The notes beneath the pieces were generated by a model that worked only from the letters and a program-made list of their open reading frames with translations, was not told the origin of the DNA and did not search any database. This document shows positions 3,221-36,656 of a DNA stretch of 64,000 nucleotides, piece by piece. Origin of the DNA: an uncultured archaeon (lineage in GTDB: Archaea; Aenigmatarchaeota; Aenigmatarchaeia; QMZP01; JACQNV01); the NCBI GenBank assembly GCA_964631205.1, contig CAZVWU010000002.1, positions 755 through 64,754 on the forward strand, read 5' to 3'. The translations under genes and the position numbers were made by a program. Numbering within the stretch: position 1 is the stretch's first letter; every line of letters begins with the position of its first letter.

Positions 3221-4867
3221 TTACTCGCCGCCCATCCCGTCAGGCATCCCGCCTGGCATTGGGGGTCCGCCCCTTGAGGCTGCTGCAGAAATCATGTCGT
3301 CTATCCTTAAAATAAGCTCTGCAACCTCTGTTGCTGATTTCAATGCCTGCAATTTTATTTTCAAGGGTTCGATGACCCCTGCTTTCAGCATGTCAACCGG
3401 CTGTTCTGTAAATACATCCAAGCCCATGTTTGGGTTTTTGTCATGCTCTGCCCTCAACTGGGCAAGCTTGTCTATTGCATCCAATCCCGCATTCTCTGCA
3501 AGGCTTCTTGGGATTATCTCCATTGCATTTGCGTAAGCAAGTATTGCAAGCTGTTCCTTCCCTTTGAACTTGTCAGCGTATTTCCTCAACTCTTTTGAAA
3601 CCTCTATTTCAGGCGCCCCGCCTCCAGGGACTATCTTCCCGAGCTCCAAGGCTGATGCGAGGCCTTTTACAGCATCTGTCATTCCCCTCTCTATTTCATC
3701 AACAACATGCTCTGTGCCACCTCTCAACAGGATTGTGACTGCTTTTGGGTCTTTGCACTTTTCAACAAATAACATCTGGTCGCCTGCTATCTTTTTCTCC
3801 TGCACCAAACCTGCATACCCAAGATCAGCTGAAGTCAGGTCGTTCAGGCTTGTCACTATCTTTCCGCCTGTAGCGCGCGCAAGGTTTTCAAGATCAGATT
3901 TCTTTACCCTTCTTGCGGCGATTATCCCTTTCTTTGCAAGGTAATGTTGGACCATATCGTCTATGCCTTTCTGGCAGAGCACTACATTCGCGCCTGAGTT
4001 GATAACCTTGTCGGCCATCTGCTTAAGCATCCTTTCCTCATTGTCAAGGAAGGCCTGTATCTTGTCAGGAGAGTCTATGTTTATTTTTGCATCATTTTCA
4101 AGGGTCTTGATTTCCAGTGCCGCATCAAGCAGCGCTATCTTCGCCTTTTCAAGCGATTTTGGCATTCCTGGATGGACGATTTCCTTGTCTATCACAATCC
4201 CGTCAATTAAGATGCTCTCCTGTATTGAGCCACCTTTTTTCTTTTCAAGTTTTACGTTTTCGCTGTCTATTTTAATTCCGCTTGGGCTTTCTTCAGCGAC
4301 TTTTTTAATTGCCGACACTGCAATTTTTGACAAGTCCTCGCCTGCCCGTTCTGCTGATTTGCCTGTCATTGCAGTTGTTGCTATCTGTATCAGTAAAGCA
4401 TCGTCTTTTAATGTTATTGGTTTTGACATTGCCTGCAAAACTTCGAGTGCCCTTTCCTTTGCCAGCCTGAAGCCTTTTGTTATGACAGTGGGATGTATTT
4501 CTTCATCAAGCAGCTCGCCTGCTTTTTTCAGGAGTTCGCCGGAGATTACCACAGCTGTTGTTGTTCCATCTCCAACTTCCTGGTCCTGTGTTTTTGCAAT
4601 CTCAACCATCATCTTTGCTGCAGGATGCTCGATCTGCATATTTTCAAGTATTGTTGCGCCGTCGTTTGTTATTGTGATGTCGCCAAGAGAATCAACAAGC
4701 ATCTTGTCCATGCCTTTTGGACCTAATGTTGTCCGCACTGCATCAGCCACAGCTTTCGCAGCTTCAATATTATTTTTCTGGGCATCCCTTCCTTTATTCC
4801 TGAGTGTGCCTTCAGGCAAAATCAATATCGGCTGTCCGCCTAAACTGCCTATTTGCGCTTGCACCAT
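3221..4867 (-). CDS. ths: thermosome subunit (group II chaperonin, Cpn60/TCP-1 family)
   Basis: 548 aa with GDGTTT ATP-binding motif, [20 protein letters not shown] and a C-terminal GGMP-like tail ([16 protein letters not shown]) typical of archaeal thermosomes. Confidence 0.95.
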
Positions 4868-5099: not shown

Positions 5100-6056
5100 T
5101 CAGGCGTATTTCGCATAAATCTCAAAGAAATTTCTGTATGTTTTTTTGAACTTTTCAAGGAAAAACCTTTCTATCTTGCTATAATGGCTGTTGTCAGCGG
5201 CTTCCAAACAGTTAAAATATGCTGTTCTGGATGTTTTTCTTACAATCAACGGCGGATAGCCTTTATTCACCAGTATTGCATTCACTAGAAACCTTCCTGT
5301 CCTCCCATTTCCGTCTTCAAATGGGTGGATTTTTTCGAATCTTGAATGGAAAATGGCGGCTGCCTGAAGGGGGTGCATCTTTCCGATGTTGCGGCCATAC
5401 CAGCTGATAAGTTTTGACATCTCAGGATAAACTTTCTCCGGCGAGGTTGTCTCCAGCCTTTTGCCAAGAAGAAAATTCGGGAGTTTTTTATATCCCTGCC
5501 TCGTATCTATGTCTTTCGTCAGGAGCGCATGCATTTTTATTATGCTCCGATGGTCTACACTAAACTTTCCAGCCAGAAGAAGGTCTAAAACCCTTCTTGA
5601 GTTCCTGGTTTCATATATTTCCCTCAAATCCTTGCCTTTAATGGACGTTTTGTCAAAAATAACTATTGCCACGTCTTTCAGCGTAAGGGAATTCCCTTCC
5701 AGGGCGTTTGATTCGTATGTAAAATTGAGGATGAACCTGTCAAAGATGTCCTTTTTTTGTTCTTTCTTGAGTTTTTTCAGGAGGCGTTTGTAATCTACTC
5801 TTGTCGCCTCGATTTTTTTAATCTCTTCTTCTGTGAATATGCTGCCTGCAGTGAAGGTTTTCAATGCCCACAGGATATTCGCTTCCTTTTCCTTTTCCAG
5901 AAAATAGCCGGAATATTTCTTTTCCAGTTTCTTCTGGCTGCCGCCCTCTTTGACCAATTTAGCCAGTTTTCTAACAGACCCATCAGGAAGCCTGACAGAC
6001 TTTACAAGGTAAGTGTACTCTTTCCCGTTTATCCTTTTCCTAGAAACATGGACCAT
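5100..6056 (-). CDS. Fic/Doc family protein (putative AMPylase)
   Basis: 318 aa containing the Fic motif HPFEDGNGRTGR (HxFx(D/E)GNGRxxR). Confidence 0.85.
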   Translation of the reverse strand: MVHVSRKRINGKEYTYLVKSVRLPDGSVRKLAKLVKEGGSQKKLEKKYSGYFLEKEKEANILWALKTFTAGSIFTEEEIKKIEATRVDYKRLLKKLKKEQKKDIFDRFILNFTYESNALEGNSLTLKDVAIVIFDKTSIKGKDLREIYETRNSRRVLDLLLAGKFSVDHRSIIKMHALLTKDIDTRQGYKKLPNFLLGKRLETTSPEKVYPEMSKLISWYGRNIGKMHPLQAAAIFHSRFEKIHPFEDGNGRTGRFLVNAILVNKGYPPLIVRKTSRTAYFNCLEAADNSHYSKIERFFLEKFKKTYRNFFEIYAKYA

Positions 6057-6167
6057 AAGGGATTTGGGGCAGGATAGCCTGTTTCTGCCCCAATTATATT
6101 TAACCCCACAGATATTTAAACCTTCATTTTTTGTGGGGTTAAGGGGTTCGGCAAATACTGTAAATTA

Positions 6168-6186
6168 ATATAACAGTGTGATATAT
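6168..6186. repeat. 19-bp direct repeat copy 2 (ATATAACAGTGTGATATAT)
   Basis: Exact match to 4962..4980. It abuts and overlaps the discriminator base at the 3' end of the candidate tRNA, ~112 bp upstream of the Fic start. Confidence 0.7.
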
Positions 6187-6491
6187 GGGCCCGCTGGGGT
6201 TTTCATATTTCCATAACCCAAATTTATTTTTGTAAATGTTTTCTCTTTGGGTTATAAGGCTTTCTCGATTCCAATTGGACACTGATCTGAAGATCAGTGT
6301 CGTCCCTTTAAAGAGAAAGGGTATAAATCGAACCCAGGACCACCTGCATTTACGCAATGCAGATTTATTCATGGACTAGAAGTTTGACTTCAATAAAATC
6401 CATGTGCCTTATAAGACAGGTGCTCTACCATTGCTCGTCTTTTTCCGGGGCGCGCTTTTTTTGATTTATGAACCGAAAAAGGGCGCTGAGC
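6186..6491 (-). tRNA. candidate tRNA-Ile (anticodon UAU) interrupted by three introns (D-loop, anticodon loop 37/38, T-loop)
   Basis: Minus-strand exons: GGGCCCGTGGCTCAG (6491..6477); AATGGTAGAGCACCTGTCTTATAA (6423..6400); GCAGGTGGTCCTGGGTTCGATT (6338..6317); CCCAGCGGGCCCA (6198..6186). These give a perfect 7-bp acceptor stem (GGGCCCG/CGGGCCC), D-stem GCTC/GAGC, anticodon stem CCTGT/GCAGG (one G-U), T-stem CTGGG/CCCAG, T-loop TTCGATT, and U33/A37 flanking TAT. A TTTATTTAAA box sits ~30 nt upstream. Confidence 0.55.
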
Positions 6492-6558
6492 CACGGGCCC
6501 ATAAGACTAATATAACAAGACCAGATTTAAATAAAGTATTCTAGTTCTTTTGGAAGAA

Positions 6559-8097
6559 TTAACCGGAAAGAGTTCCTGCGCTCTTCTGGACCTCAGGCTG
6601 CTTCTGCCATTCCTTTTTCAGGCCATGGATTTGGGCCAGCCTTTTGAAGAAAATTGCAGCTGATTTTGCTGTCCTTACAGCTTCTGAAGGGCTCTTTAAA
6701 GACTGCACAGTCTTGTAGGCCAGGTATTTTGGGTTTGAATAATATTGCTTGAGAGCGACATCTGCCCATTCCACTAATTCTTTGTTTGTTAAATCTGGCC
6801 TTGATACAAGTGTGTTGTGTTTCCCCTCGCTATCGATCCACTGATCATAATCCCTTGTTGTAAGGTAGCCGTTTTCCTCTGCCCATTTAAATGTGCCTGT
6901 TCCAGGGTAAGCCATTAAAGGGAAGAATTGCGCTGTGTCAGGCATCAGCTTTTTCGCAAAATCAATTGTCGCCTGCATGCTTTTCTTGTTGTCTTTTGGC
7001 AGCCCTAATATAAAACAGCCATTTGTAATTAAACCCGCCTTTCTGACACTTTCCATGAACTCTTCCTGCATCTTTGCTGTCGTGCCTTTTTTCACAGAGT
7101 TCAGCTCATCCTGCTCAGGCGATTCAAAACCAACACACAGCAGCCTGCATCCTGCATCCCTCATCGCCTTCAGAGTCTCATAATCAGTGTTTACCCGCGC
7201 ATTGCAGGACCATTTTATTTTTATCCCTCTCTGAATTATCTCTTTCGAAAGATCGATTGTCCGCTGCTTGTTTAATGGAAATGTATCATCCTCCAGCTGT
7301 ATCTCGCTTATAAAAGGCAGCTCATTCTTGATATACTCAAACTCGTCAGCAACATTTTTCACTGACCTCTGCCTATAGGATGATTTGAAAGGGATGTGGC
7401 AAAAAGAGCAGCTGTAAAGGCATCCTCTCCCTGTCAGTATCGTGACTTCAGGCCATGTCAGGGACGCATAAAAATATTTTTTCATCCCCTCTTCTCCAAG
7501 GTGTTTGTAATAAGTCTCTGAAACAAAAGGGAGTTTGTCAAGATCTTGAATTAACGGCCTTTCAGGAGTGTGGATAAATTTTCCGCCTTGCATAAAAACC
7601 AGACCCTTCACATCATCCAGTTTTTTCCCTGCTTCAATGTGCTGCGCCAATTCCAACGCAGTTTCATCAACCTCCCATCTGATCACAGAATCAATTGCGC
7701 CTTTGCCATGAACAAGCGTCTCTTCAGGCACATTAGAAGGGTGTATTCCCATTACAGAAATATGGATTCCGGGGATCGCAGCCTTTATTTTCGCTGCCTG
7801 CCTGATGTCATTCAAAATAGATGGCGTTGAAGTGTCCATCAGGATGAGGCCGTTCCTGTCTGTAAAGTATTTTTTTGCTTGCTCAACTGTGAAATCATGG
7901 GACCATTCGCTTGCCACTGCATCAACCAGCCAGGTCTTAAAGCCGTTATGCTCAACCCATCCTGCCCCATATGCGAGATAATACGGATGGTAAAAAGTCC
8001 CGCCATTAGTCACGCATGGCGACCTTGACTGCCTGGAATAAAGATTGAGCAATTTGCCATTCCTTTCAAAGGACGGGTTTAAGAAAAGGGTTTTCAT
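6559..8097 (-). CDS. B12-binding domain radical SAM protein
   Basis: 512 aa with a CLYSCSFC (CxxxCxxC) cluster motif preceded by a cobalamin-binding-like N-terminal region. Confidence 0.7.
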   Translation of the reverse strand: MKTLFLNPSFERNGKLLNLYSRQSRSPCVTNGGTFYHPYYLAYGAGWVEHNGFKTWLVDAVASEWSHDFTVEQAKKYFTDRNGLILMDTSTPSILNDIRQAAKIKAAIPGIHISVMGIHPSNVPEETLVHGKGAIDSVIRWEVDETALELAQHIEAGKKLDDVKGLVFMQGGKFIHTPERPLIQDLDKLPFVSETYYKHLGEEGMKKYFYASLTWPEVTILTGRGCLYSCSFCHIPFKSSYRQRSVKNVADEFEYIKNELPFISEIQLEDDTFPLNKQRTIDLSKEIIQRGIKIKWSCNARVNTDYETLKAMRDAGCRLLCVGFESPEQDELNSVKKGTTAKMQEEFMESVRKAGLITNGCFILGLPKDNKKSMQATIDFAKKLMPDTAQFFPLMAYPGTGTFKWAEENGYLTTRDYDQWIDSEGKHNTLVSRPDLTNKELVEWADVALKQYYSNPKYLAYKTVQSLKSPSEAVRTAKSAAIFFKRLAQIHGLKKEWQKQPEVQKSAGTLSG

Positions 8098-8153: not shown

Positions 8154-9455
8154 ATGAAAACTATTGTAGACCTCCACATCCACAGCCCGCATGCAAGGGC
8201 GTGCAGCAAAGACATTTCTCTTGAGAATTTGGAAAAGTTTGCCAAGATAAAAGGGGTTGAGCTTTTAGGGACTGGCGACTTCTGCCATCCAAAATGGATA
8301 CAGGAATTAAAAAATAAATTGACTGAGGATGATACCGGAATTTTAAAAACTAAGACAGGGTTTCCTTTTATTCTTCAGTTCGAGATTGCGCTGATTTATT
8401 CTGATGGCGGGAAAGGCAGGAGGGTGCATAATCTTGTTTTGGCTCCGGATTTTGGCACTGTAGACCAGATAACAGAAGCCCTGCTGAAAAAGGGCCGCGT
8501 AGACTATGACGGGCGCCCGATGTTTGGGATTCCCTGCGCGGATTTTGTTGAAATGATGAAATCGATAAGCGGAGATATTGAAATCATCCCTGCTCACGCC
8601 TGGACCCCATGGTTTTCTGTTTTTGGCTCAAAATCAGGCTTTAATTCACTTGAGGAGTGTTTCAAGGACCAATCAAAATATATTCATGCAATTGAAACAG
8701 GCCTCTCGTCTGATCCGTCGATGAACTGGAGGCTTTCCCAGCTAGACAATATCCAGCTGGTTTCTTTTTCCGACATCCATTCCTACTGGCCATGGAGGCT
8801 TGGAAGGGAGGCGACTGTTTTGGATTTAAAAGAATTGACCTACAAAAATATTTTGAATGCAATAAGAACTGGAGAAGGCTTAATCGAAACATTTGAAACT
8901 GATCCGGCATATGGAAAATACCATTTCGACGGCCACAGGTTTTGCGGCGTTTCCTTTGATCCAAAAGAATCTAAAAAAATAGGGGAGATATGCCCCAGAT
9001 GCCAGAGGAAACTGACAGTCGGGGTCTTAAGCCGGGTTGAAGAATTGGCCGACAGGCCAGAAGGGTTCAAACCAACAGGCAGGCCTGCGTTCAGGTCGGT
9101 CATACCGCTTTCAGAAATTATTTCTTTTAGTCTGGGCTCAGACAATCCTGCATCAAGGCAAGCTTGGGAGGTTTACAATAAACTCATAGAACGTTTCGGC
9201 TCAGAATTCAAAGTTGTTTTTGATGCAAGCTTTGAAGAGCTTTCAAAAACAATAGACGAGAAAATCGCAAAAAACATAATTGATATCCGGGGAGGCAAGG
9301 TAAAGCTCCTCCCAGGCTTTGACGGGGTATATGGGATCCCTGTTTTTAATCCGGAAGATGAAGACAAGCTGAATAAATTAAGACTCAAAAATATGGGAAA
9401 GGAATTTCACCAAAATAAAAATAAAAAACAGAAAAGTTTGGCTGATTTCAAATAA
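8154..9455 (+). CDS. endonuclease Q-like PHP-domain nuclease with zinc ribbon
   Basis: MKTIVDLHIHSPHARACS PHP-type metal-binding N-terminus and a CPRCQRK zinc finger. Its ~430 aa length matches archaeal EndoQ. Confidence 0.6.
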   Translation: MKTIVDLHIHSPHARACSKDISLENLEKFAKIKGVELLGTGDFCHPKWIQELKNKLTEDDTGILKTKTGFPFILQFEIALIYSDGGKGRRVHNLVLAPDFGTVDQITEALLKKGRVDYDGRPMFGIPCADFVEMMKSISGDIEIIPAHAWTPWFSVFGSKSGFNSLEECFKDQSKYIHAIETGLSSDPSMNWRLSQLDNIQLVSFSDIHSYWPWRLGREATVLDLKELTYKNILNAIRTGEGLIETFETDPAYGKYHFDGHRFCGVSFDPKESKKIGEICPRCQRKLTVGVLSRVEELADRPEGFKPTGRPAFRSVIPLSEIISFSLGSDNPASRQAWEVYNKLIERFGSEFKVVFDASFEELSKTIDEKIAKNIIDIRGGKVKLLPGFDGVYGIPVFNPEDEDKLNKLRLKNMGKEFHQNKNKKQKSLADFK

Positions 9456-12353: not shown

Positions 12354-12770
12354 TTATTCAACTACTTCAAATTTCACTCCATAATGTATTACTCCGCCCT
12401 TCCCATCCTCATACATTTTCCTGAACACTGGTTTGACTTTTTTCCCTGTTTCAATTTTTGATAAATCGCCGACTACTTGGCCTGAAACAGTTGTTCCCTC
12501 GACCAATTTTATCATGCCCACTGCATAAGGCGTATACTCTTCAAAACCGTCGGGCGGTGCATGTATTATTGTATAAGAACGTATTTCTCCCTGGCCAGAA
12601 AACTTAAACTCTTCTATAACACCCTTTCTCCTGCAGTCAGGGCACAAAGTTTTGGGTGGGAAAAAAACCTGGTTGCAGGTTTTGCATTTTGTCCCTATAA
12701 GGCTGTACTTGGATTTTTTCAATCTCCAGAACAATGGCGTTGATACATGAGTCATATTATTCACTCCCAA
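12354..12770 (-). CDS. DUF35 OB-fold/Zn-ribbon protein (thiolase-HMGCS scaffold subunit)
   Basis: 138 aa with a CKTCNQVFFPPKTLCPDC rubredoxin-like Zn ribbon. Overlaps the thiolase gene by 14 bp. Confidence 0.75.
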   Translation of the reverse strand: MGVNNMTHVSTPLFWRLKKSKYSLIGTKCKTCNQVFFPPKTLCPDCRRKGVIEEFKFSGQGEIRSYTIIHAPPDGFEEYTPYAVGMIKLVEGTTVSGQVVGDLSKIETGKKVKPVFRKMYEDGKGGVIHYGVKFEVVE

Positions 12771-13923
12771 AAATATTCACGACAGCAGTTGCGCCTGTGC
12801 CGCCCACATTTTGTGCCAATCCTATTTTTGCGCCTTTAATTTGGAGCTTCCCTGCCTCGCCTTTCAATTGCCTAGCGATATCCACAATCTGCCTTATGCC
12901 AGATGCACCAACCGGATGGCCGATTGATTTTAGGCCTCCCATTGTGTTTGTTGGCTTTTCAGATCCTATTGATATTTTCCCCTGCTCCACGAATTTCCCG
13001 CCCTCCCCCTTTTTGCAGAATCCTAGATCCTCTATTGCAATAATCTCATTTATCGAGAAACAGTCATGTACCTCAGCAACATCAATCTTTTCATGCCCAA
13101 AGCCAGCTTTTGCATATGCAATTTTGGCTGCTGCTTTTGTGGCTGCCATTTCTGTGATGCTCTTCCTGTCGTGCAAAGCAAGCGTGTCTGAAGCTTGGCC
13201 AGAGCCCAGCAGCCAGACAGGTCTTTCTATGCCTAATTTTTTCACCATTTCTTCGGATGCCAGAATAACTGCCGCAGCTCCATCTGTTATCGGGCTGCAA
13301 TCCAATAGCCTTAATGGATCAGCAATCATTGGTGATGTCAGGACATCTTCAAGCGTGACAGGATATGGGTGCTGTGCGAGAGGATTTAACGCCCCATTTT
13401 TGTGGTTGTTCACAGAGACCATTGCAATCTGCTCTTTTGTTGTCCCAAACTGCTTCATATGCGCCCTTGCAATCAAGGCATACAGACCTGGGAAAGTAAG
13501 GCCTATAGCCGACTCCCATTCATGGTCGCCTGCGCCCATTAAAGCAGACACAGCCTGTTCGCCTTTCACATCAGTCATCTTCTCTGCGCCTGCAGCCATT
13601 ACAATATCATGCTCACCTGCCATTATCGAAATGGCCGCCTTCCTGAAGGCCAGAGCTCCAGATGCGCATGCGCCTTCAACTCTTGTTGCAGGTATTGGAT
13701 TCAAGCCTGCTTGGTCAACAGCAAGCGCGGCAAGATGCTCCTGGCCGATAAAACGGCCGCCTGACATATTGCCTACATATAACGCCTGTATCTCCCTCCC
13801 CTCTAGCTTTGCGTCGTGAAGGGCCTTTCCACCAGCTTCTGTAGCCAAGTCCCTCAGCGATTTCTCCCAATGCTCATCAAATTTGGTATAGGCTGCTCCA
13901 ATTACTGCAATTCGTTTAGACAT
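12757..13923 (-). CDS. acetyl-CoA C-acetyltransferase (thiolase), archaeal type
   Basis: 388 aa beginning MSKRIAVIGAAYTKF, with a nucleophile Cys region LNPIPATRVEGACASGA and the C-terminal NVGGTGATAVVNIF. Confidence 0.85.
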   Translation of the reverse strand: MSKRIAVIGAAYTKFDEHWEKSLRDLATEAGGKALHDAKLEGREIQALYVGNMSGGRFIGQEHLAALAVDQAGLNPIPATRVEGACASGALAFRKAAISIMAGEHDIVMAAGAEKMTDVKGEQAVSALMGAGDHEWESAIGLTFPGLYALIARAHMKQFGTTKEQIAMVSVNNHKNGALNPLAQHPYPVTLEDVLTSPMIADPLRLLDCSPITDGAAAVILASEEMVKKLGIERPVWLLGSGQASDTLALHDRKSITEMAATKAAAKIAYAKAGFGHEKIDVAEVHDCFSINEIIAIEDLGFCKKGEGGKFVEQGKISIGSEKPTNTMGGLKSIGHPVGASGIRQIVDIARQLKGEAGKLQIKGAKIGLAQNVGGTGATAVVNIFGSE

Positions 13924-14140
13924 ATTTCACATTTTTCTCCTGTATCATTTTCTTTGGGATCTGCATCTCTCTGTAAGAAGATGCAGAGATGTCTCGTGTC
14001 CTATCGAACAGGCGAGACACGATCTCAAACCTTTCTTTTTTAAAAGAAAGGGCTGATGCCCCTATTATTGCAATTCGTTTAGTCATAGTTAATTCACCAC
14101 TGATTTTGTATTTTAGTTTTTTTTGGATCTGCATCTCTAA
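13896..14140. repeat. partial tandem duplication (~165 bp period) of the thiolase 5' end/leader, with embedded hairpins
   Basis: ATTACTGCAATTCGTTTAGACAT (13901..13923, thiolase start) recurs as ATTATTGCAATTCGTTTAGTCAT (14065..14087). GGATCTGCATCTCT is present at 13957..13970 and 14124..14137. Hairpin CATCTCT...AGAGATG is at ~13962..13990. Confidence 0.6.
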
Positions 14141-25530: not shown

Positions 25531-26100
25531 ATGGATAGTGACGTTAGAAAATATTTCTTGGACAAAAGAGACGGTATTGGCATCGAGGAAATTGCGTCTA
25601 AAAGCGCGGCTATTATTGAAAAGCTTCTTTCTTTGGATGAATTCAAGAAGGCGGGTGTTGTGATGGCTTATGTCTCAAAAACAAGAGAAGTCTGTACACA
25701 TGGATTAATCAAAAAAGGCCTTGGTATGGGGAAGGTTTTAGTTGTTCCAAAAATAGATAAAACCATGAATGAAATTATTCCATGCACTTTAAATAATCTC
25801 GACGAGCTTGCCCCCGGAGTTTTTGGGGTATTGGAACCTAAAAAAGCTGAGCTTGTCAAAAAAGAGGATATAGGCCTTTTTGTTGTTCCTGGCCTTGCGT
25901 TTGACAAAAATGGCAATAGGCTAGGTTATGGCTATGGATATTGGGATAGGTTTTTAAAAGGGGTTGATAAAAAGCGTATCGTTGGCCTTTGCCTGGAAAA
26001 TTTCCTTGCAGATAAGCTGGAAATACAGGAGAAGGATATAGCTGTTTCAAAGGTCATAACAGAGAAAAGGATTGTTTATGCAGGCAACGGATTTTATTGA
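25531..26100 (+). CDS. 5-formyltetrahydrofolate cyclo-ligase
   Basis: 189 aa with the LFVVPGLAFDKNGNRLGYGYGYWDRFL signature (GYGxGYYD). Confidence 0.75.
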   Translation: MDSDVRKYFLDKRDGIGIEEIASKSAAIIEKLLSLDEFKKAGVVMAYVSKTREVCTHGLIKKGLGMGKVLVVPKIDKTMNEIIPCTLNNLDELAPGVFGVLEPKKAELVKKEDIGLFVVPGLAFDKNGNRLGYGYGYWDRFLKGVDKKRIVGLCLENFLADKLEIQEKDIAVSKVITEKRIVYAGNGFY

Positions 26101-27412
26101 AAAAGCGGATACTGAAATTTCAGTCCTGCTGAAAAAGGAGATTAAAAGGCAGGAAACTTGTATAACCCTTATCCCTTCTGAAAATTATGCTAGCCTTGCT
26201 GTCCTGCAGGCGCTAGGGTCTCCGCTGACAAATAAATACTCTGAAGGCTATCCAGGAAAACGGTATTATAGCGGCAACAAGTTTATAGACTCTATTGAGA
26301 CTGTTGCAATTGATAGGGCAAAAAAGCTTTTTTCTGTGCCGCATGCGAATGTCCAGCCATATTCCGGAAGCCCTGCAAATCTAGCAGTGTATGCCGCAGT
26401 ATGCAGGCCTGGCGATGTTGTAATGGGCCAGAGCCTTCCTGACGGGGGGCATCTTACGCATGGCTGGAAAGCAAGCTTTACAGGCCAAAACTACAAAAGC
26501 GTGCAGTACCGTGTAAATGGGGATGGAAGAATAGATCTGGAAGAATTGGAAAGGTTGGCAAAGGAAAATAAGCCTAAGCTTATCTGGGTCGGTGCGACAG
26601 CGTATGTCAGGGAATTTTTATTTGAGGAGATAGGGGAGATCGCGGATGAAGCAGGGGCCTATCTCGCTGCTGACATATCCCATATAGCCGGGCTTGTTGC
26701 TTCCGGAGTGCACAAGAGCCCTGTGAAATTTGCGCACATTGTCACAACTACAACGCATAAAACTCTTAGGGGGCCGCGCGGCGCAATAATAATGGTGACA
26801 GGCAAAGGCCTTGAAAAAGATCTTGACCTTTCAAAAAAAATAGATAAGGCTGTGTTTCCCGGCCTGCAGGGCGGGCCGCATGACAATACGACTGCAGCGA
26901 TTGCTGTCGCATTGGCTGAAGCAATGAGACCGGAATTCAGGCAATATGCAAGGCAGGTTGTAGTAAACGCGAAAGCTTTGGCTGATTCTCTCATCAAGAA
27001 CAATCTGAACCTTGTTTCTGGGGGGACAGACAACCATATGGTTCTTGTCGACCTTGCCAAATTTGGCAAAGGCGCTGGATTTTTCGCCCAGGAAGGCCTG
27101 GAGCTTGCAGGCATAACAGCAAACAAGAATACAATACCAAAAGATCCTGGCAGCCCATTTTACCCGAGCGGCCTGAGGCTTGGGACCCCTGCTGTGACAA
27201 CAAGGGGAATGGGGGAAAAAGAGATGCAAAAATTAGGGGAATGGGTTTCGTCTATTGTGAAAGAAGTTTCTGCCTACAGATTGCCTGAAGATGAGGGTGA
27301 AAAGAAAATCCAAATCAAAAAATTTTATCAGGAAGCAGGCAAGAATAAAAAAATAAAGGAGATCGCGGGTGAGATAGCTGAAATCTGCAAAAAATTCCCT
27401 GTTTATCCATAA
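26072..27412 (+). CDS. glyA: serine hydroxymethyltransferase
   Basis: LIPSENYASLAVLQALGSPLTNKYSEGYPGKRYY and the THKTLRGPRG PLP-lysine region. Confidence 0.9.
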   Translation: MFMQATDFIEKADTEISVLLKKEIKRQETCITLIPSENYASLAVLQALGSPLTNKYSEGYPGKRYYSGNKFIDSIETVAIDRAKKLFSVPHANVQPYSGSPANLAVYAAVCRPGDVVMGQSLPDGGHLTHGWKASFTGQNYKSVQYRVNGDGRIDLEELERLAKENKPKLIWVGATAYVREFLFEEIGEIADEAGAYLAADISHIAGLVASGVHKSPVKFAHIVTTTTHKTLRGPRGAIIMVTGKGLEKDLDLSKKIDKAVFPGLQGGPHDNTTAAIAVALAEAMRPEFRQYARQVVVNAKALADSLIKNNLNLVSGGTDNHMVLVDLAKFGKGAGFFAQEGLELAGITANKNTIPKDPGSPFYPSGLRLGTPAVTTRGMGEKEMQKLGEWVSSIVKEVSAYRLPEDEGEKKIQIKKFYQEAGKNKKIKEIAGEIAEICKKFPVYP

Positions 27413-27415
27413 TTT

Positions 27416-28270
27416 ATGGCAATCGTGATTGACGGCAAAAAGATCGCAGAAGAAATAAGGGCCGGGTTAAAAAAAGAAATTCTTGAATTAAAAAATGCTG
27501 GGATAAATCCTGCATTACATATTATTCTGGTGGGCAAAAATCCTGCGTCAAAAATCTATGTAAAGGTTAAGGAAAAATATTGCAAAGAGGTTGGGATTGT
27601 CTTTGAGCTGGAAGAGCTTGATGAAACTGTAAAAGAAGAGGAGCTTATTGGCAGAATACTCGCTATTAATTCTGACAAAAAAATAACTGGCATAATAGTT
27701 CAGCTTCCTCTCCCAGAGCACATAAATAAAAACAATGTTCTTGAGGTAGTTGACCCGAAAAAAGACGTTGATGGGCTCACTCCTTATAATCTCGGGAATC
27801 TTGCTCTAGGAGATGAAACGTTTTCTGCTGCAACATCAAAAGGGATTGTTAGGCTCTTGGAAAAATCCGCGATTGAACTTAAAGGAAAACACATTGTCAT
27901 TATAAACAGGAGCTTGAATGTTGGCAAACCTCTTATACAACTTCTATTGAACAGGGATGCGACTGTAACTGTCTGCCATAGCAAGACAAAAAATTTAAAA
28001 GAATTTACAAAAAGCGCTGACGTAATTGTATGCGCTGTTGGAAAGCCGGATTTCCTCAAAAAGGATATGGTAAAAAATGGCTCTATAGTTATTGATGTCG
28101 GACTGACTTACATCGACGGCAAAGGTGTGGGCGATGTTGATTTCAATTCTGTGAAAGAGAAAGCATCCATGATAACCCCTGTTCCCGGCGGTGTTGGGCC
28201 CATGACTGTTGCAATGGTGCTGGAAAACACGGTGATAGCGGCAAAAAAACAAGCTGGGTTAAATCCCTGA
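27416..28270 (+). CDS. folD: bifunctional methylenetetrahydrofolate dehydrogenase/methenyl-THF cyclohydrolase
   Basis: 284 aa beginning MAIVIDGKKIAEEIRAGLKKEI, with VQLPLPEHI, VDGL and VPGGVGPMTVAML motifs. Confidence 0.9.
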   Translation: MAIVIDGKKIAEEIRAGLKKEILELKNAGINPALHIILVGKNPASKIYVKVKEKYCKEVGIVFELEELDETVKEEELIGRILAINSDKKITGIIVQLPLPEHINKNNVLEVVDPKKDVDGLTPYNLGNLALGDETFSAATSKGIVRLLEKSAIELKGKHIVIINRSLNVGKPLIQLLLNRDATVTVCHSKTKNLKEFTKSADVIVCAVGKPDFLKKDMVKNGSIVIDVGLTYIDGKGVGDVDFNSVKEKASMITPVPGGVGPMTVAMVLENTVIAAKKQAGLNP

Positions 28271-29011
28271 ACCACCTTTTTTCCAATTGACAGAGTTTAC
28301 CAGCGGCGAATATATGTCTGTTGCTTTATCTATCGCCAGTGCGTCTGGGTTTTTTGTGTCCAAATCGACAAAATTTATAAAATCTGTGTCCTCAACAATT
28401 GCCATTGGCGTCTGCTCGTTGCCTTCCCCCATTAACAGCACTGCAGCGGCAGCTATTGCGTCTGCTATGTTTGCCTGAGAGATTTTCATTTCCCTGCCAA
28501 AAATGTCCTTTGATCCCCTATAATCGCGTAGCGGGTTAAACCCATAATAGGAGACTGCTATGCCTGTAACGCCCCATCTAAGGGGCATTGTGTGGCTGTC
28601 GGTGATTATCACACCGAGGTTTTGCAGACTGAATTTCGATTTAAGAAATTTTTGAATCTGTTTTGCCACATCGAATGGCTTTGAGGGCCAGAGTATATAA
28701 TATCCGTTCCCATTGCTTTCATCTATTCCTGCTGTCGGGATAAGTATATTGTTCTTTATTGTCAGCATCACATATTTGTTCGGGACTTCTTCCCTGTCAA
28801 GATACATATATGACTCTTTCTTTACCAGCTCATCCTTTTCAACAGAGCCGATTTTTATGCATCTGCCCTGTGAGATTGCAACCACTTTTGATGTCACAAC
28901 AAATATAGATTTCTCTTTTAGTTTCCTTCCTGAAAGGCCTTCATTTATCAAGGCTAGCAAGTCGCCTTTTGGCGGAAGGAATATCTTTGTTTTAAGCGGG
29001 GTTATAATCAT
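28259..29011 (-). CDS. CofE-like (F420-0:gamma-glutamyl ligase family) protein
   Basis: IITPLKTKIFLPPKGDLLALI...VVTSKVVAISQGR resembles the CofE/FbiB N-terminal domain. Confidence 0.45.
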   Translation of the reverse strand: MIITPLKTKIFLPPKGDLLALINEGLSGRKLKEKSIFVVTSKVVAISQGRCIKIGSVEKDELVKKESYMYLDREEVPNKYVMLTIKNNILIPTAGIDESNGNGYYILWPSKPFDVAKQIQKFLKSKFSLQNLGVIITDSHTMPLRWGVTGIAVSYYGFNPLRDYRGSKDIFGREMKISQANIADAIAAAAVLLMGEGNEQTPMAIVEDTDFINFVDLDTKNPDALAIDKATDIYSPLVNSVNWKKGGSGI

Positions 29012-29012
29012 A

Positions 29013-29894
29013 CTATTCTACAATAGCCTCCTGTATTTCTATATGCCCGCCATCGATGCATTTCAGGATTAAGTTTTGTTCCAGTAGTTTTTTGGCTTGA
29101 TCTTTGTTTATGTTTTTTAATTCCATAACAGATAAAATATTCCCTTGTTCTTTCACTGCAGTAATCTCGACTCTCTTGAAAAATATTTTTCCATCGGCGA
29201 TTTTTGTGTAGGCGTTTGGGTAAGGATCCTCAAGAGAGCATATGAAATTAAAGAGCTGGGTTGAGCCCATTTTCCTTAGTTTTTCTTCTGTGAGCTCGCT
29301 TTCTGATTTTTTCCTTCTTTTGTATACGGTTGCTTGTGATTCATTTTGCTGAATAGGCTTTAACTTACCATCAGCAAGTTCATCCAGCATCTCAATTGTT
29401 GCATTTAGCCCTACATCGCCAATCCGATGGATTATGTCTTTAAGGTGGCCTTCCAGGGAAAGCGGCTTTTGTTTGTAAACAGGCCCGTCGTCCAGTTTTT
29501 CTGTCATCTGGAAGAGTGAAACCATCGATTCTGTCTCGCCGTTGATTATCTGATGCTGTATAGGGGACCCTCCCCTGTATTTTGGCAGCGGTGATGGATG
29601 GAGGCAGATGCATATTTTTGTTTTCACTATCTCAGCTGGGACAATCCATGACCAGCCATAAAAAAGGAGGATATCAAATCCATCAAAAAAAGCTTCTGAA
29701 TATATTTCTAACAGTTCTTTTGGATCAATTATTTTTGTCTGGATCCTGAGCCTGTCTATGGGATATCTTGGAAATAAAATTTCAGGCGTTGTGACTATCT
29801 GGTCTATGTTCCATTTCTTGTTTTTTATGGCTAAAAGCTCCTTTGCAATAAAGTACGCCCAATCCCGTCCGTCACTTAGAAAAGCAATTTTCAT
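29013..29894 (-). CDS. formyltransferase family protein (Fmt-like; likely sugar N-formyltransferase) with extra C-terminal domain
   Basis: ILLFYGWSWIVPAEIV...CLHPSPLPKYRGGSPIQHQI is the Formyl_trans_N HxSLLPxxRG signature. Start is set at MKIAFLSDG. Confidence 0.65.
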   Translation of the reverse strand: MKIAFLSDGRDWAYFIAKELLAIKNKKWNIDQIVTTPEILFPRYPIDRLRIQTKIIDPKELLEIYSEAFFDGFDILLFYGWSWIVPAEIVKTKICICLHPSPLPKYRGGSPIQHQIINGETESMVSLFQMTEKLDDGPVYKQKPLSLEGHLKDIIHRIGDVGLNATIEMLDELADGKLKPIQQNESQATVYKRRKKSESELTEEKLRKMGSTQLFNFICSLEDPYPNAYTKIADGKIFFKRVEITAVKEQGNILSVMELKNINKDQAKKLLEQNLILKCIDGGHIEIQEAIVE

Positions 29895-29907
29895 GTTTGC
29901 CTCCTCC

Positions 29908-30597
29908 TTATATAAAAAGCCTATGACATTTGAACCCCTCAGCTGCATGCGAACCGATTTCCTTTCCCCTTATCTCTGCCCATCGCCTGAGGTTTTCAGC
30001 GCTCCTTGGAAAGGGGTCTGGCCTGTCTTGGCTTTCATGTAATTTCATTGCCTTGATTTTGTTTTGCAGGATTTCTTCTGTGAGCTCGACATAGAAATTC
30101 GGCTTGAAAGCATTTTCTGAAACAGACCAGAGGTAAGGCTCGTCATATTCCAAAACAATTTGCGGCATGTGCCTGACATTTTTTGGCACTGGCCTTAGCG
30201 CAGTTATGCAGGCTGTGAAAACTGCGCGATGGTCCTGATTGTAACTATCCCTGTAAGGTATGCATATTATATCTGGCCTGAATTCCTGTATTATATCTTC
30301 TATCGGGTCGATCATGTCCTTTTGCAAAACCTTGTCCAGCCTTACAAATTCGTCCCCAACAAAAAGGAATTTGTATTTGGAATTGCAGAACTTGGCTACA
30401 TTTGCGGCCTCAGTCATCCTTATATTCTCATTGGTCGATCCTGTCACAAGCTGCCTTGTCTTCCCTACACAGATGTAGAATACAAAAACCTCTGCGCCCT
30501 CCTTTTTGCAGCGGCTAATAAGGCCGCCGCAGCTTATTATTTCATCATCCGGATGCGGTGATATTATCAAAACTTTTTTCCCATTGAAAGAAAACAT
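29908..30597 (-). CDS. PIG-L/LmbE family N-acetyl-sugar deacetylase
   Basis: VLIISPHPDDEIISCGG motif. Confidence 0.8.
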   Translation of the reverse strand: MFSFNGKKVLIISPHPDDEIISCGGLISRCKKEGAEVFVFYICVGKTRQLVTGSTNENIRMTEAANVAKFCNSKYKFLFVGDEFVRLDKVLQKDMIDPIEDIIQEFRPDIICIPYRDSYNQDHRAVFTACITALRPVPKNVRHMPQIVLEYDEPYLWSVSENAFKPNFYVELTEEILQNKIKAMKLHESQDRPDPFPRSAENLRRWAEIRGKEIGSHAAEGFKCHRLFI

Positions 30598-35141: not shown

Positions 35142-36656
35142 TTATTTTCCCAGCTTTGGGTTTGAGAGGTTAAACCCCTTTTTCATGAAGCTTTTTGCAG
35201 TGAGCTTTCCCATTCTAAGGAGGAATCCAGGATTTGTATATATTATTTGGGCCAGCCTTAAGATGAAGCATCTGTCTATCATTCCAAAAATATCCTTTAT
35301 TTTTTCTGCATTTTCCTCGCAGGCTTTTTCCACTATTCTTCTGCAGTCTATAAGATCGTCTTGTGTCAGATCCTCATGCCTTATCCCGACTGTGGAGGAA
35401 AGTATATGATCATATTTGCTCCAGTCTCTGCTGACAAGCAGATTGTTTTTGGTTGCATATTCGTAAAGGTATGTTCCTGGGTATGGGGTTGAAATTGAAA
35501 CATTCCAGCTAAAGGGTTTTATTGTTTTTATCAGGTTTATTGTTTCCTGTACAGTTTCTTTTGATTCTCCAAGATTGCCAACCATTAAATAAGCATGTGT
35601 CAGTATGCCCAGCTCCTTGCAATTTTTAAAGACGTCAACTGCCTGCTGGACGGTTGCCATTTTGTTCACATTGTCCAGGATTTTCTGGCTTCCGGATTCA
35701 ACTCCAAAAGCCACAAATATGCATCCTGCCCGTTTCATCCACTCAAGAGTCCTTCTCGAAAGGTTTACCCTTGTCTGGCACCTCCAGAAAATCGGTATCT
35801 TCCTAGTTATAATTTCCTGGCAAATTTCAACAACCCTCTCCTGATGGAAAGCAAAGGTGTCGTCAGTGAAAACAAAGCTGTCCAGCTTGAATTTTTTTAC
35901 TAAGTATTCTATCGTGTCAACAACTTTTTTTGGCGACTGGTATCTTACCTTAGGCCCAAAAAGGCTGACAAGTATTGGCTGGCAGAAAGTGCACCTGTAA
36001 GGGCAGCCGCGGCTTGTATACACTGACATCTCCCTGTAGCCTTTGAGCGCGAAATACTTGTCCATCGGAAAATCGCCTGGGTCTGGAATGGGGAGGTCAT
36101 CAAGGTTTTCTATGAATGGCCTGTCAGCTGTTTTAATTATTTTTCCATGGGCATCCCTGTAGATCACGCCGAGCAGCTTTGAAAAATCCCCATTTGCCTC
36201 TATCGTCTTTATGATGTCTACAATTCCTATTTCGCTTTCCCCGAGAGCTACAAGGTCCATATCGAGTTCCTCAAGTGTCTTTTCCCTGCTTGCTGAAGGG
36301 TGAGGCCCGCCGCCTATTATAAAAGAGGCAGGGTCGCGCTGCCTTATTATTGAGATCATCTGCTTCACCTGGTTGAACAATGCTGTCGGGAACGAGATAA
36401 GGTAAATCCCGCCTGATATGCTTGAATTTTTCAGCTGAGACATCCCCGGATCAAAAAGAATATCCATCACGCGTGTTCTGTAGCCTGCATTCTTAAGCGA
36501 AGAGTTTATGTATGTCAACCCCAGAGGAGGGGCAAGGGAGCTCTGCTTTTCTATCTCAGCAGGCCATATTATAACAATTTCTTTTTTTCCAGATATTGCT
36601 GTTGGCTGAGTTTTCAGGCTCAAATGACCTATGGGTTTTTCAAGAGACGTTTCCAT
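35142..36656 (-). CDS. B12-binding domain radical SAM protein (second copy)
   Basis: YTSRGCPYRCTFC CxxxCxxC motif with an N-terminal cobalamin-binding-like region. Confidence 0.7.
   Translation of the reverse strand: METSLEKPIGHLSLKTQPTAISGKKEIVIIWPAEIEKQSSLAPPLGLTYINSSLKNAGYRTRVMDILFDPGMSQLKNSSISGGIYLISFPTALFNQVKQMISIIRQRDPASFIIGGGPHPSASREKTLEELDMDLVALGESEIGIVDIIKTIEANGDFSKLLGVIYRDAHGKIIKTADRPFIENLDDLPIPDPGDFPMDKYFALKGYREMSVYTSRGCPYRCTFCQPILVSLFGPKVRYQSPKKVVDTIEYLVKKFKLDSFVFTDDTFAFHQERVVEICQEIITRKIPIFWRCQTRVNLSRRTLEWMKRAGCIFVAFGVESGSQKILDNVNKMATVQQAVDVFKNCKELGILTHAYLMVGNLGESKETVQETINLIKTIKPFSWNVSISTPYPGTYLYEYATKNNLLVSRDWSKYDHILSSTVGIRHEDLTQDDLIDCRRIVEKACEENAEKIKDIFGMIDRCFILRLAQIIYTNPGFLLRMGKLTAKSFMKKGFNLSNPKLGK

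Follow-up and report, generated by a model that had tools for sequence, protein, structure and literature searches.

A probable three-intron tRNA-Ile(UAU) gene in a DPANN-type archaeon

An interrupted tRNA gene

We have analysed a stretch of 64,000 nucleotides of DNA from an uncultured archaeon (contig CAZVWU010000002.1), to which we refer as the window. A 502-bp intergenic gap within it contains, on the minus strand from 6500 to 6186, four short segments that can be joined to give a complete isoleucine tRNA with the anticodon UAU. The tRNA-Ile(UAU) gene occupies 315 nt, and its four exons and three introns lead to a spliced product of 72 nt (Table 1). A tRNA of this kind, divided by introns in the D-loop, the anticodon loop and the T-loop, had been proposed from the letters of the sequence (the original prediction), and this is borne out by the call that ARAGORN makes on the spliced exons, by bulge–helix–bulge (BHB) motifs at the junctions and by orthologous genes. 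On this evidence, all of it drawn from sequence, we think it very probable that the locus is a functional three-intron tRNA-Ile(UAU) gene that serves as the decoder of AUA. Some details of the proposal change. The gene starts at 6500 and spans 315 nt; the end first assigned (6491, with a span of ~306) is the first base of the D-stem. Of the intron lengths first given (~53, 61 and ~117 nt), that of the anticodon-loop intron stands, while the D-loop and T-loop introns are really 55 and 127 nt long.

All the helices of the cloverleaf of a class I elongator tRNA form in the spliced sequence. The 7-bp acceptor stem comprises GGGCCCG (6500–6494) and CGGGCCC (6193–6187), with the discriminator A at 6186. 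The D-stem (GCUC/GAGC, 4 bp) closes a mature loop AGUGGUA, the anticodon stem (CCUGU/GCAGG, 5 bp) a 7-nt loop CUUAUAA, and the T-stem (CUGGG/CCCAG, 5 bp) a mature 7-nt loop UUCGAUC; the variable loop is UGGUC. The four stems, the anticodon loop and the discriminator base are as originally read, and all lie on the minus strand. The bases responsible for tertiary interactions can be read from the sequence as a complete set, i.e. U8–A14, G15–C48, G18 and G19 with U55 and C56, and U54–A58. Of the features that bear on charging with isoleucine and on the reading of AUA, those seen are the anticodon UAU, A37, A38 and A73. ARAGORN calls the spliced sequence as tRNA-Ile(tat), and does the same for every other complete gene described below (9/9 in all). 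CCA is not encoded after exon 4; the bases there are TAT, so that the terminal CCA would be added post-transcriptionally, as in established tRNA maturation.

The original prediction held that standard scans would miss this gene, and that is so for both ARAGORN and Infernal/Rfam. With or without its intron option ARAGORN finds no tRNA gene in the whole 64-kb window, and at a lowered threshold it gives spurious calls only, with 'introns' of kilobases. In the window nothing reaches the gathering score of Rfam, and a search of 5800–6900 at E ≤ 10 yields no tRNA-like match. Annotation of the orthologs holds a related trap: with the intron option ARAGORN mis-calls the two-intron genes of the loci designated L025 (4639–4806) and L019 (3202–3371) as tRNA-Ala(tgc) and tRNA-Ser(aga), giving each one single large intron. 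Two custom scans for further split tRNAs, together with inspection of motifs and intergenic gaps in the window, returned A/T-rich chance matches and no second convincing tRNA.

Could the locus itself be such a match, a chance assembly of four unrelated complementary segments in an A/T-rich spacer? A loose split-tRNA filter yields dozens of A/T-rich chance matches in the window, so that short complementary segments are plainly common. Yet this locus is the sole G+C-rich, tRNA-like match over the whole window, and the only one to combine a G+C-rich acceptor stem with tRNA-like D, anticodon and T arms. Further evidence against chance comes from the splice motifs and from the orthologs, considered below.

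Within the 315 nt all four exons follow one another in order, and a single TATA-like box precedes them, 25–35 nt upstream of tRNA position 1. A split (trans-spliced) or permuted tRNA gene is ruled out by this arrangement. A similar A/T box lies at an equal distance from the tRNA in the orthologous loci L013 (ATTTATAT) and L017 (TATATAAAT), and we regard the box in the window as a putative archaeal promoter.

Table 1. Features of the tRNA-Ile locus in the window, and intron positions in the orthologous genes. Arrows mark the predicted cuts; H is the central helix of the BHB motif.
Feature	Position	Strand	Details
Exon 1, 15 nt	6486..6500	minus	GGGCCCGTGGCTCAG; acceptor 5′ strand, U8, G9, D-stem 5′ strand, A14, G15
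Intron 1, 55 nt	6431..6485	minus	D-loop 15/16; H GCUC (6491–6488)/GAGC (6436–6433); bulges AG↓C, AA↓U
Exon 2, 22 nt	6409..6430	minus	TGGTAGAGCACCTGTCTTATAA; D-loop remainder, D-stem 3′ strand, A26, anticodon-stem 5′ strand, loop CUUAUAA, anticodon UAU
Intron 2, 61 nt	6348..6408	minus	anticodon loop 38/39 (probable register); H UUAU (6414–6411)/GUAA (6353–6350); bulges AA↓G, AU↓G
Exon 3, 21 nt	6327..6347	minus	GCAGGTGGTCCTGGGTTCGAT; anticodon-stem 3′ strand, variable loop UGGUC, T-stem 5′ strand, T-loop U54–U59
Intron 3, 127 nt	6200..6326	minus	T-loop 59/60; H UUCG (6332–6329)/UGAA (6205–6202); bulges AU↓U, AA↓C
Exon 4, 14 nt	6186..6199	minus	CCCCAGCGGGCCCA; C60, T-stem 3′ strand, acceptor 3′ strand, discriminator A73
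TATA-like A/T-rich box	6525..6535	minus	TTTATTTAAAT; putative promoter
B12-binding radical-SAM open reading frame	6559–8097	minus	upstream side of the tRNA gap
Fic-domain open reading frame	5100–6056	minus	other border of the tRNA gap
Thermosome gene	3221–4867	minus	just beyond the Fic open reading frame
tRNA-Ile gene, window	6500–6186	minus	introns 15/16, 38/39, 59/60
tRNA-Ile gene, L013			introns 15/16, 38/39
tRNA-Ile gene, L017			introns 15/16, 38/39, 53/54
tRNA-Ile gene, L019			introns 29/30, 38/39
tRNA-Ile gene, L024			introns 15/16, 38/39, 59/60
tRNA-Ile gene, L025			introns 29/30, 38/39
tRNA-Ile gene, L026			introns 15/16, 38/39, 59/60
tRNA-Ile gene, L027			introns 15/16, 37/38, 53/54
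tRNA-Ile gene, L028			introns 29/30, 38/39, 45/46, 59/60
tRNA-Ile gene, L016 (3′ fragment only)			T-loop uninterrupted

Splice motifs and the register of the middle intron

According to the rule of Marck and Grosjean (2003), as summarized in PMC4090602, the exon bases at −6 to −3 before the 5′ cut of a BHB pair with the intron bases at −6 to −3 before the 3′ cut, and each cut separates the second and third bases of a 3-nt bulge. All three junctions in the window have a central helix H with 4/4 pairs and 3-nt bulges, in keeping with the BHB-like motifs that the original prediction had named as a check. Pairs of positions taken at random in the window give a 4/4 central helix at a background of 0.024 per junction, which amounts to ~1.3e-5 for three of three. 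The rule extends to the family as a whole, where 21/25 introns of the nine complete genes pair 4/4 and the other 4 introns pair 3/4. BHB geometry at every junction is a second argument against chance assembly.

The three motifs differ in their flanking helices. Intron 3 forms a strict hBHBh′ in which the T-stem (5 bp) provides the outer helix h, with an H of 4 bp and a 3-bp h′ of UAU/AUA. In intron 1 (junction AG↓C...AA↓TGG) the outer helix h is absent, and h′ is broken by a small internal loop followed by an internal helix CUUUUUC/GAAAAAG. Intron 2 has a 3-bp h′ (GCA/UGC), but two bases facing the 3′ bulge, U31 and C32, are unpaired and offset its h. The junction of intron 3 reads GAT↓TTATA...GAAAA↓CCCCAG. 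A hairpin that the original prediction had offered as a contributor to a BHB turns out to be GACACTGATC-TTCA-GATCAGTGTC at 6301–6278, lying inside intron 3 and forming no part of its BHB. The idea that the long introns harbour a C/D-box small RNA was rejected, as no RUGAUGA box was seen by eye.

The 38/39 introns share a further property. In the window (6408–6348) and in the orthologs the 5′ end of this intron, GGCA(C), is complementary to the 5′ strand of the anticodon stem, and a (C)CUGC sequence near its 3′ end is complementary to the 3′ strand. Together these complementarities would create a two-hairpin conformer in competition with the BHB. The four strands of the competing hairpins have all changed in parallel in L025 (CCAGU, GGCUG, CCAGC, GCUGG).

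Where exactly is the middle intron cut? It had been placed at the canonical 37/38 site, yet the reconstruction on which that was based, CTTATAA followed by GCAGG, itself gives 38/39, and we believe that 38/39 is probably the correct register. Cleavage of the same gene at 37/38 would generate a loop CUUAUAU with U38. This is by far the commonest site of archaeal introns (PMC4090602), and a 7-nt loop results from either register. Moreover the 38/39 motif is irregular on its 3′ side, where the unpaired U31 and C32 leave h with 0 contiguous outer-helix pairs. The central helix is, however, quite different in the two registers. Read by hand, that for 37/38 is CUUA/CGUA with 1/4 pairs, while the 38/39 register has an H of 4/4 in 7/8 orthologs. 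With splicing at 38/39, position 38 is invariably A; a cut at 37/38 would have it vary between U and C in exons that are otherwise invariant. The gene of L027 is instructive here: its intron lies at the canonical 37/38 within a strict hBHBh′ (h 5, H 4, h′ 3), and its product keeps A38, the same base that 38/39 gives elsewhere. A 37/38 cut in the window gene thus seems unlikely.

Orthologs and intron turnover

How general is this gene among related archaea? A scan of metagenomes with the pattern of exon 2 gave one true ortholog, L013. The other four matches (L011, L012, L014 and L015) proved to be tRNA-Ile(UAU)-like genes unrelated to this one and were excluded; that of L014 (~8655–8830) lies in a tRNA cluster and has a ~70-nt insertion between the variable region and the T-arm. 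A search for thermosome homologues combined with contig look-ups yielded the orthologs of L016, L017 (also L018), L019 (also L020), L024, L025, L026, L027 and L028. Since L016 is a 3′ fragment only, there are nine complete genes, comprising that of the window and eight orthologs. The orthologous tRNA genes adjoin a thermosome gene and a gene for an MJ0043_C-domain protein, and the identity of the thermosomes to that of the window ranges from 93% down to 70%. For L013 the MJ0043_C-like gene, the thermosome and a third gene are 68, 83 and 48% identical at the protein level. Following synteny through the adjacent radical-SAM gene led to relatives L003 (81%) and L004 (54%), neither of which has a tRNA downstream.

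The exons are strongly conserved while the introns are not. The 72-nt exon sequence is identical in the window, L013 and L017, beside flanking proteins that are 48–84% identical and introns that differ in sequence and length. Elsewhere the exons have changed in a compensatory manner, with such variants of exon 1 in L019, L025 and L028. The introns are constant neither in sequence nor in length, and both their presence and their positions differ from one ortholog to another. Exon 2 recurs as an exact 22-mer in L013 and L017, and exon 3 as an exact 21-mer in L019 and L020. Co-conservation of the four segments, suggested at the outset as a check, is thus found in eight syntenic orthologs whose introns diverge. 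In every ortholog sequence 21/21 cloverleaf pairs form. Across the seven distinct mature sequences 147/147 pair cells are standard pairs; none of 500 shuffles was as good, and controls in which the alignment was slid were 25–49% paired. Changes on both sides of a pair occur at 3:70, 5:68, 7:66, 27:43, 29:41, 50:64 and 52:62.

Several orthologs lack one or other intron, and their sequences match the junctions predicted from the BHBs. The D-loop is uninterrupted in L019 (where it reads GCTCAGTGGCAGAGC), L025 and L028; this gives the mature AGTGGTA, with the GG that the original reading contained. The uninterrupted T-loop sequence TTCGATCCCCAG is present in L013, L016 and L019, and L025 likewise has no T-loop intron; these four read TTCGA(T/A)(C/T)CCCAG. 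Consequently the T-loop originally written as TTCGATT must be amended to TTCGATC, its last base coming from exon 4. The junctions of introns 1 and 3 are in this way fixed independently of the motif. The anticodon-loop intron is present in 9/9 complete genes.

Two of the alternatives may be considered here. Chance assembly is already refuted by the orthologous sequences: exons conserved at 100% in L013 and L017 beside proteins only 48–84% identical, together with compensatory changes in four helices, leave it next to no probability. The second alternative is that the intervening sequences are self-splicing introns of group I or II, or are otherwise removed independently of the splicing endonuclease EndA. 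Group I introns do occur in bacterial tRNA genes, including those of Patescibacteria (PMC13011429). But at 55–127 nt the introns of the window gene are far too short, compared with the more than 200 nt expected of group I and II introns; Rfam reports no intron family for the window at its gathering score, nor for 5800–6900 at E ≤ 10; and the organism is archaeal, as judged by its thermosome, with every junction conforming to BHB geometry. We consider self-splicing extremely improbable.

There remain a number of observations that weigh against a functional three-intron gene. Introns 1 and 2 have motifs that are relaxed with respect to h, which the first lacks and which in the second is offset by the unpaired U31 and C32; EndAs of broad specificity accept relaxed motifs (PMC3239211, PMC5829648). 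Folds constrained to the BHBs lie 4.6–7.3 kcal/mol above the unconstrained minimum free energy (MFE), and for intron 2 the thermodynamic model prefers the competing two-hairpin conformer. As the MFE favours other pairings, free-energy folding alone neither supports nor refutes the BHBs, and the register rule and the orthologs are the informative tests. The genes endA, rtcB and tiaS are not among the 55 open reading frames of the window scanned with Pfam, and the 64 kb, a small part of the genome, contains no other tRNA and no tiaS-like Pfam match. Lastly, L016, the closest relative with a thermosome identity of 93% and the same 3′ flank, has no T-loop intron. Thus intron 3 was either gained recently in the lineage of the window or lost recently in L016.

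The last point bears on a further alternative, that of a decaying gene: a former tRNA-Ile inactivated by insertions, especially that of 127 nt in the T-loop, with AUA decoded by another gene. Besides the uninterrupted T-loop of L016, a portion of intron 3 is similar to DNA outside any intron that is located downstream of the L013 tRNA, and the flank of the tRNA is a hot spot for insertions (Fic here, ParE in L016 and VapBC in L021). However, the insertion has a strict hBHBh′ at exactly 59/60, a site used in L024, L026 and L028, and its 3′ motif UGAA-AA↓N is that of L024 and L028. The four exons are intact and identical to those of L013 and L017, and AUA is the commonest isoleucine codon of the window. 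All other eight fully readable orthologs carry 2–4 introns each, so that interruption is the normal state of this gene. We therefore judge decay to be very unlikely.

The presence of a thermosome gene identifies the source as an archaeon. It is a DPANN-type archaeon, and the nearest named homologues of its thermosome are in metagenome-assembled genomes (MAGs) of Aenigmarchaeota. The genome is mesophile-like with 40% G+C. Compared with the ancestral order of MJ0043_C-like gene, tRNA and thermosome, the radical-SAM and Fic genes are insertions; the former is absent upstream of the tRNA in L013. Between tRNA and thermosome the small gene in the spacer changes from relative to relative, with those named above (that of L016 being ParE-like) and others elsewhere, L017 and L025 being among the relatives compared. 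The flanks of the tRNA look like an insertion hot spot. The greater part of the window, 15500–63300, is a large cluster for sugar-nucleotide and glycan biosynthesis (many GT2/GT4 glycosyltransferases, epimerases, a flippase, a carbamoyltransferase and an asparagine synthase), within whose bounds lie a second B12-binding radical-SAM paralogue (35142–36656) and folate one-carbon enzymes (25531–29948).

Are the introns themselves mobile? Introns 1 and 2 are homologous to their counterparts in L017 (z 13.5 and 23.9, respectively). For the T-loop intron, the 59/60 position and the UGAA-AA↓N motif are common to the window, L024 and L028, while the 59/60 intron of L026 has an H of UUCG/CGAG and a second bulge AA↓U. 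The T-loop introns of the window and L024 share a weak local similarity, and their common descent is plausible. A single gene has 2–4 introns at seven positions among organisms whose thermosomes are 70–93% identical. On this basis it could be proposed that introns of the tRNA-Ile gene are actively mobile in this DPANN lineage, a tentative idea that we rather doubt. If it were true, the clade would preserve DNA-level snapshots of the gain, transposition and loss of BHB introns.

The observations that bear on mobility are suggestive without establishing it. The 5′ part of intron 3 (6326–6285, ACCCTTTCTCTTTAAAGGGACGACACTGATC...) matches the corresponding 5′ part of two D-loop introns, those of L017 (4013–4051) and L013, with z 4–8 against shuffles, which hints at copying of introns between positions of the same gene. 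The 3′ half of intron 3 together with exon 4 aligns with L013 2958–3015 (81% over 54 nt, E 1e-7). This segment lies 340 nt downstream of the tRNA of L013, whose T-loop is uninterrupted, and ends with a degenerate copy of exon 4 (CCTCCAATAGGCGCA compared with CCCCAGCGGGCCCA). Its appearance is that of a remnant from an earlier 59/60 intron with a displaced exon 4, such as integration or replacement at the T-loop might leave.

Hairpin modules recur in the introns and beyond. A double hairpin, CTGCATCTCT..AGATGCAGAG plus GTCTCGTGTC..GAGACACGA followed by CCTTTCTTTTTTAAAAGAAAGG, is found in intergenic DNA of the window at 13945–14060 (plus strand). Its stems in window 13957–14022 are identical to those in the D-loop intron of L024 (5576–5681), including an exact 21-mer, and the module may be a small mobile hairpin element of introns and spacers. 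It is bracketed by a ~165-nt direct repeat within 13894–14138 (13894–13927 versus 14057–14090, 85%; 13949–13970 versus 14117–14138, 91%) that duplicates the first codons of a thiolase-like open reading frame (12757–13923, minus strand). Perfect polypyrimidine/polypurine hairpins of the form CTTTCTTT-loop-AAAGAAAG are found at L017 4220, L019 3177, L024 5770, L026 5552/5737/5835 and window 14030. Within loci of 10–13 kb they are almost confined to the tRNA-Ile gene or its immediate surroundings. The number observed is 5, compared with 0–2 per 64 kb in shuffled window sequence.

The gene of L028 (5620–5909, plus strand, in the Candidatus Aenigmarchaeota MAG GCA_016783545.1, JADHWJ010000004.1) appears from its sequence to be a four-intron tRNA gene, with introns of 37, 60, 33 and 84 nt at 29/30, 38/39, 45/46 and 59/60 in that order. 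For the variable-loop intron a strict search for an H of 4/4 found no junction that yields a valid tRNA. The junction at 45/46 has an H of 3/4 and an h′ of 4 bp, and rests on the variable loop of the product, AGGUC, which matches that of L027. Four introns would exceed the maximum of three stated for archaeal tRNA genes in reviews (PMC4090602, PMC4033280).

AUA decoding and comparison with known systems

The tRNA would have a heavy load to carry. In 51 open reading frames of the window AUA provides 893/1691 isoleucine codons (53%; 47 per 1000), and in the thermosome gene 28/49. Such use makes an AUA decoder indispensable, and tRNA-Ile(UAU) is the only candidate in view. By the established pathway of archaeal tRNA maturation, the upstream TATA-like box would drive transcription of a ~315-nt precursor with three protein-spliced introns. 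The 4-bp pairing between exon and intron would set both cut sites of each intron within the 3-nt bulges of a BHB; the archaeal endonuclease EndA would cut in the six bulges, and an RtcB-type ligase would join the exons. RNase P, tRNase Z and the CCA-adding enzyme would then finish the 72-nt body, with modification of the anticodon loop to follow, and U34 would have to be kept from reading AUG. Transcription, the enzymes of this scheme and the order of splicing are taken by analogy from that pathway.

Here the only visible decoder of AUA escapes both ARAGORN and Rfam, though AUA is the commonest isoleucine codon. Without searches for multiple introns that are aware of the BHB, annotations of DPANN MAGs, estimates of their completeness and inferences of 'missing tRNAs' go wrong. 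The incomplete tRNA sets of DPANN-type genomes with L3-loop endonucleases have indeed been ascribed to undetected disrupted genes (PMC5829648), and DPANN EndAs with the L3 loop accompany increased disruption of tRNA genes (PMC5829648).

Genes of this class are already known in Thermoproteales, ARMAN, Asgard archaea and C. merolae, and that of the window is no new kind of object. As the original prediction noted, archaeal tRNAs with several introns at non-canonical positions are documented, both in Thermoproteales and in Asgard lineages (PMC4090602, PMC4033280, PMC11291895). In the accounts of PMC4090602 and PMC4033280, the multi-intron tRNA genes of Thermoproteales, with BHB introns at sites that include 29/30, 53/54 and 59/60, were recognized in 2007–2008 (Sugahara et al. 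2007, 2008), and like those described here they have strict and relaxed (hBH, HBh′) motifs and a quick turnover of introns among relatives. Thermoproteales belong to TACK, whereas the window gene is from a DPANN-type, mesophile-like genome of 40% G+C and has long introns (55–127 nt). Two of its sites, 15/16 in the D-loop and 38/39, are not among the positions listed in the review PMC4090602, the primary tables not having been checked. The same reviews describe intron transposition in Thermoproteales (Fujishima et al. 2010), again with similar intron sequences at different positions. By comparison with the process outlined there, the likeness found here is modest (z 4–8) and is confined to a single orthologous gene instead of linking many tRNA species; intergenic DNA, too, contains one of the hairpin modules.

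Another parallel is provided by the DPANN lineages ARMAN (Micrarchaeota/Parvarchaeota; Fujishima et al. 2011, PMC3239211), which use tRNA-Ile(UAU) and lack tRNA-Ile(CAU) and TiaS, so that the UAU tRNA stands there in place of TiaS and agmatidine. The original prediction had pointed to such use in a few small-genome archaea without agmatidine chemistry, and for ARMAN, which lack TiaS, it is documented. An intron is found in the anticodon loop of the pre-tRNA-Ile(UAU), and the epsilon2 endonuclease cuts introns of tRNA-Ile(UAU) and tRNA-Cys, with cleavage at 37/38 and, in the T-loop, at 59/60 shown experimentally in vitro (PMC3239211). The ARMAN-2 tRNA-Ile(UAU) that was tested has one 25-nt intron at 37/38, unlike the three introns of the window gene. 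In the Asgard Atabeyarchaeia and Freyarchaeia over half the tRNA genes have multiple, often non-canonical introns, which were found only through careful curation of complete genomes (PMC11291895). These belong to a different superphylum, and the comparison rests on one gene from the organism of the window.

The same architecture is found in a eukaryote. The nuclear tRNA-Ile(UAU) gene of C. merolae (2013, PMC3728597) is likewise interrupted three times, by one BHB intron each in D-arm, anticodon loop and T-loop, and its splicing has been verified by reverse transcription–PCR. There, however, the D-arm is interrupted within the stem, and the middle site is 37/38. The two are surely of independent origin. 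What goes somewhat beyond the routine in the present case is the use of seven intron positions in one orthologous gene of relatives that are fairly close, the shift of an anticodon-loop intron by one nucleotide, and long introns built of recurring hairpin modules. The nine orthologs constitute a compact natural series: amid exons that remain fixed, BHB introns appear, vanish and move over by one nucleotide (between 37/38 and 38/39). Such a series should be useful in asking how the introns of archaeal tRNAs arise and come to change position.

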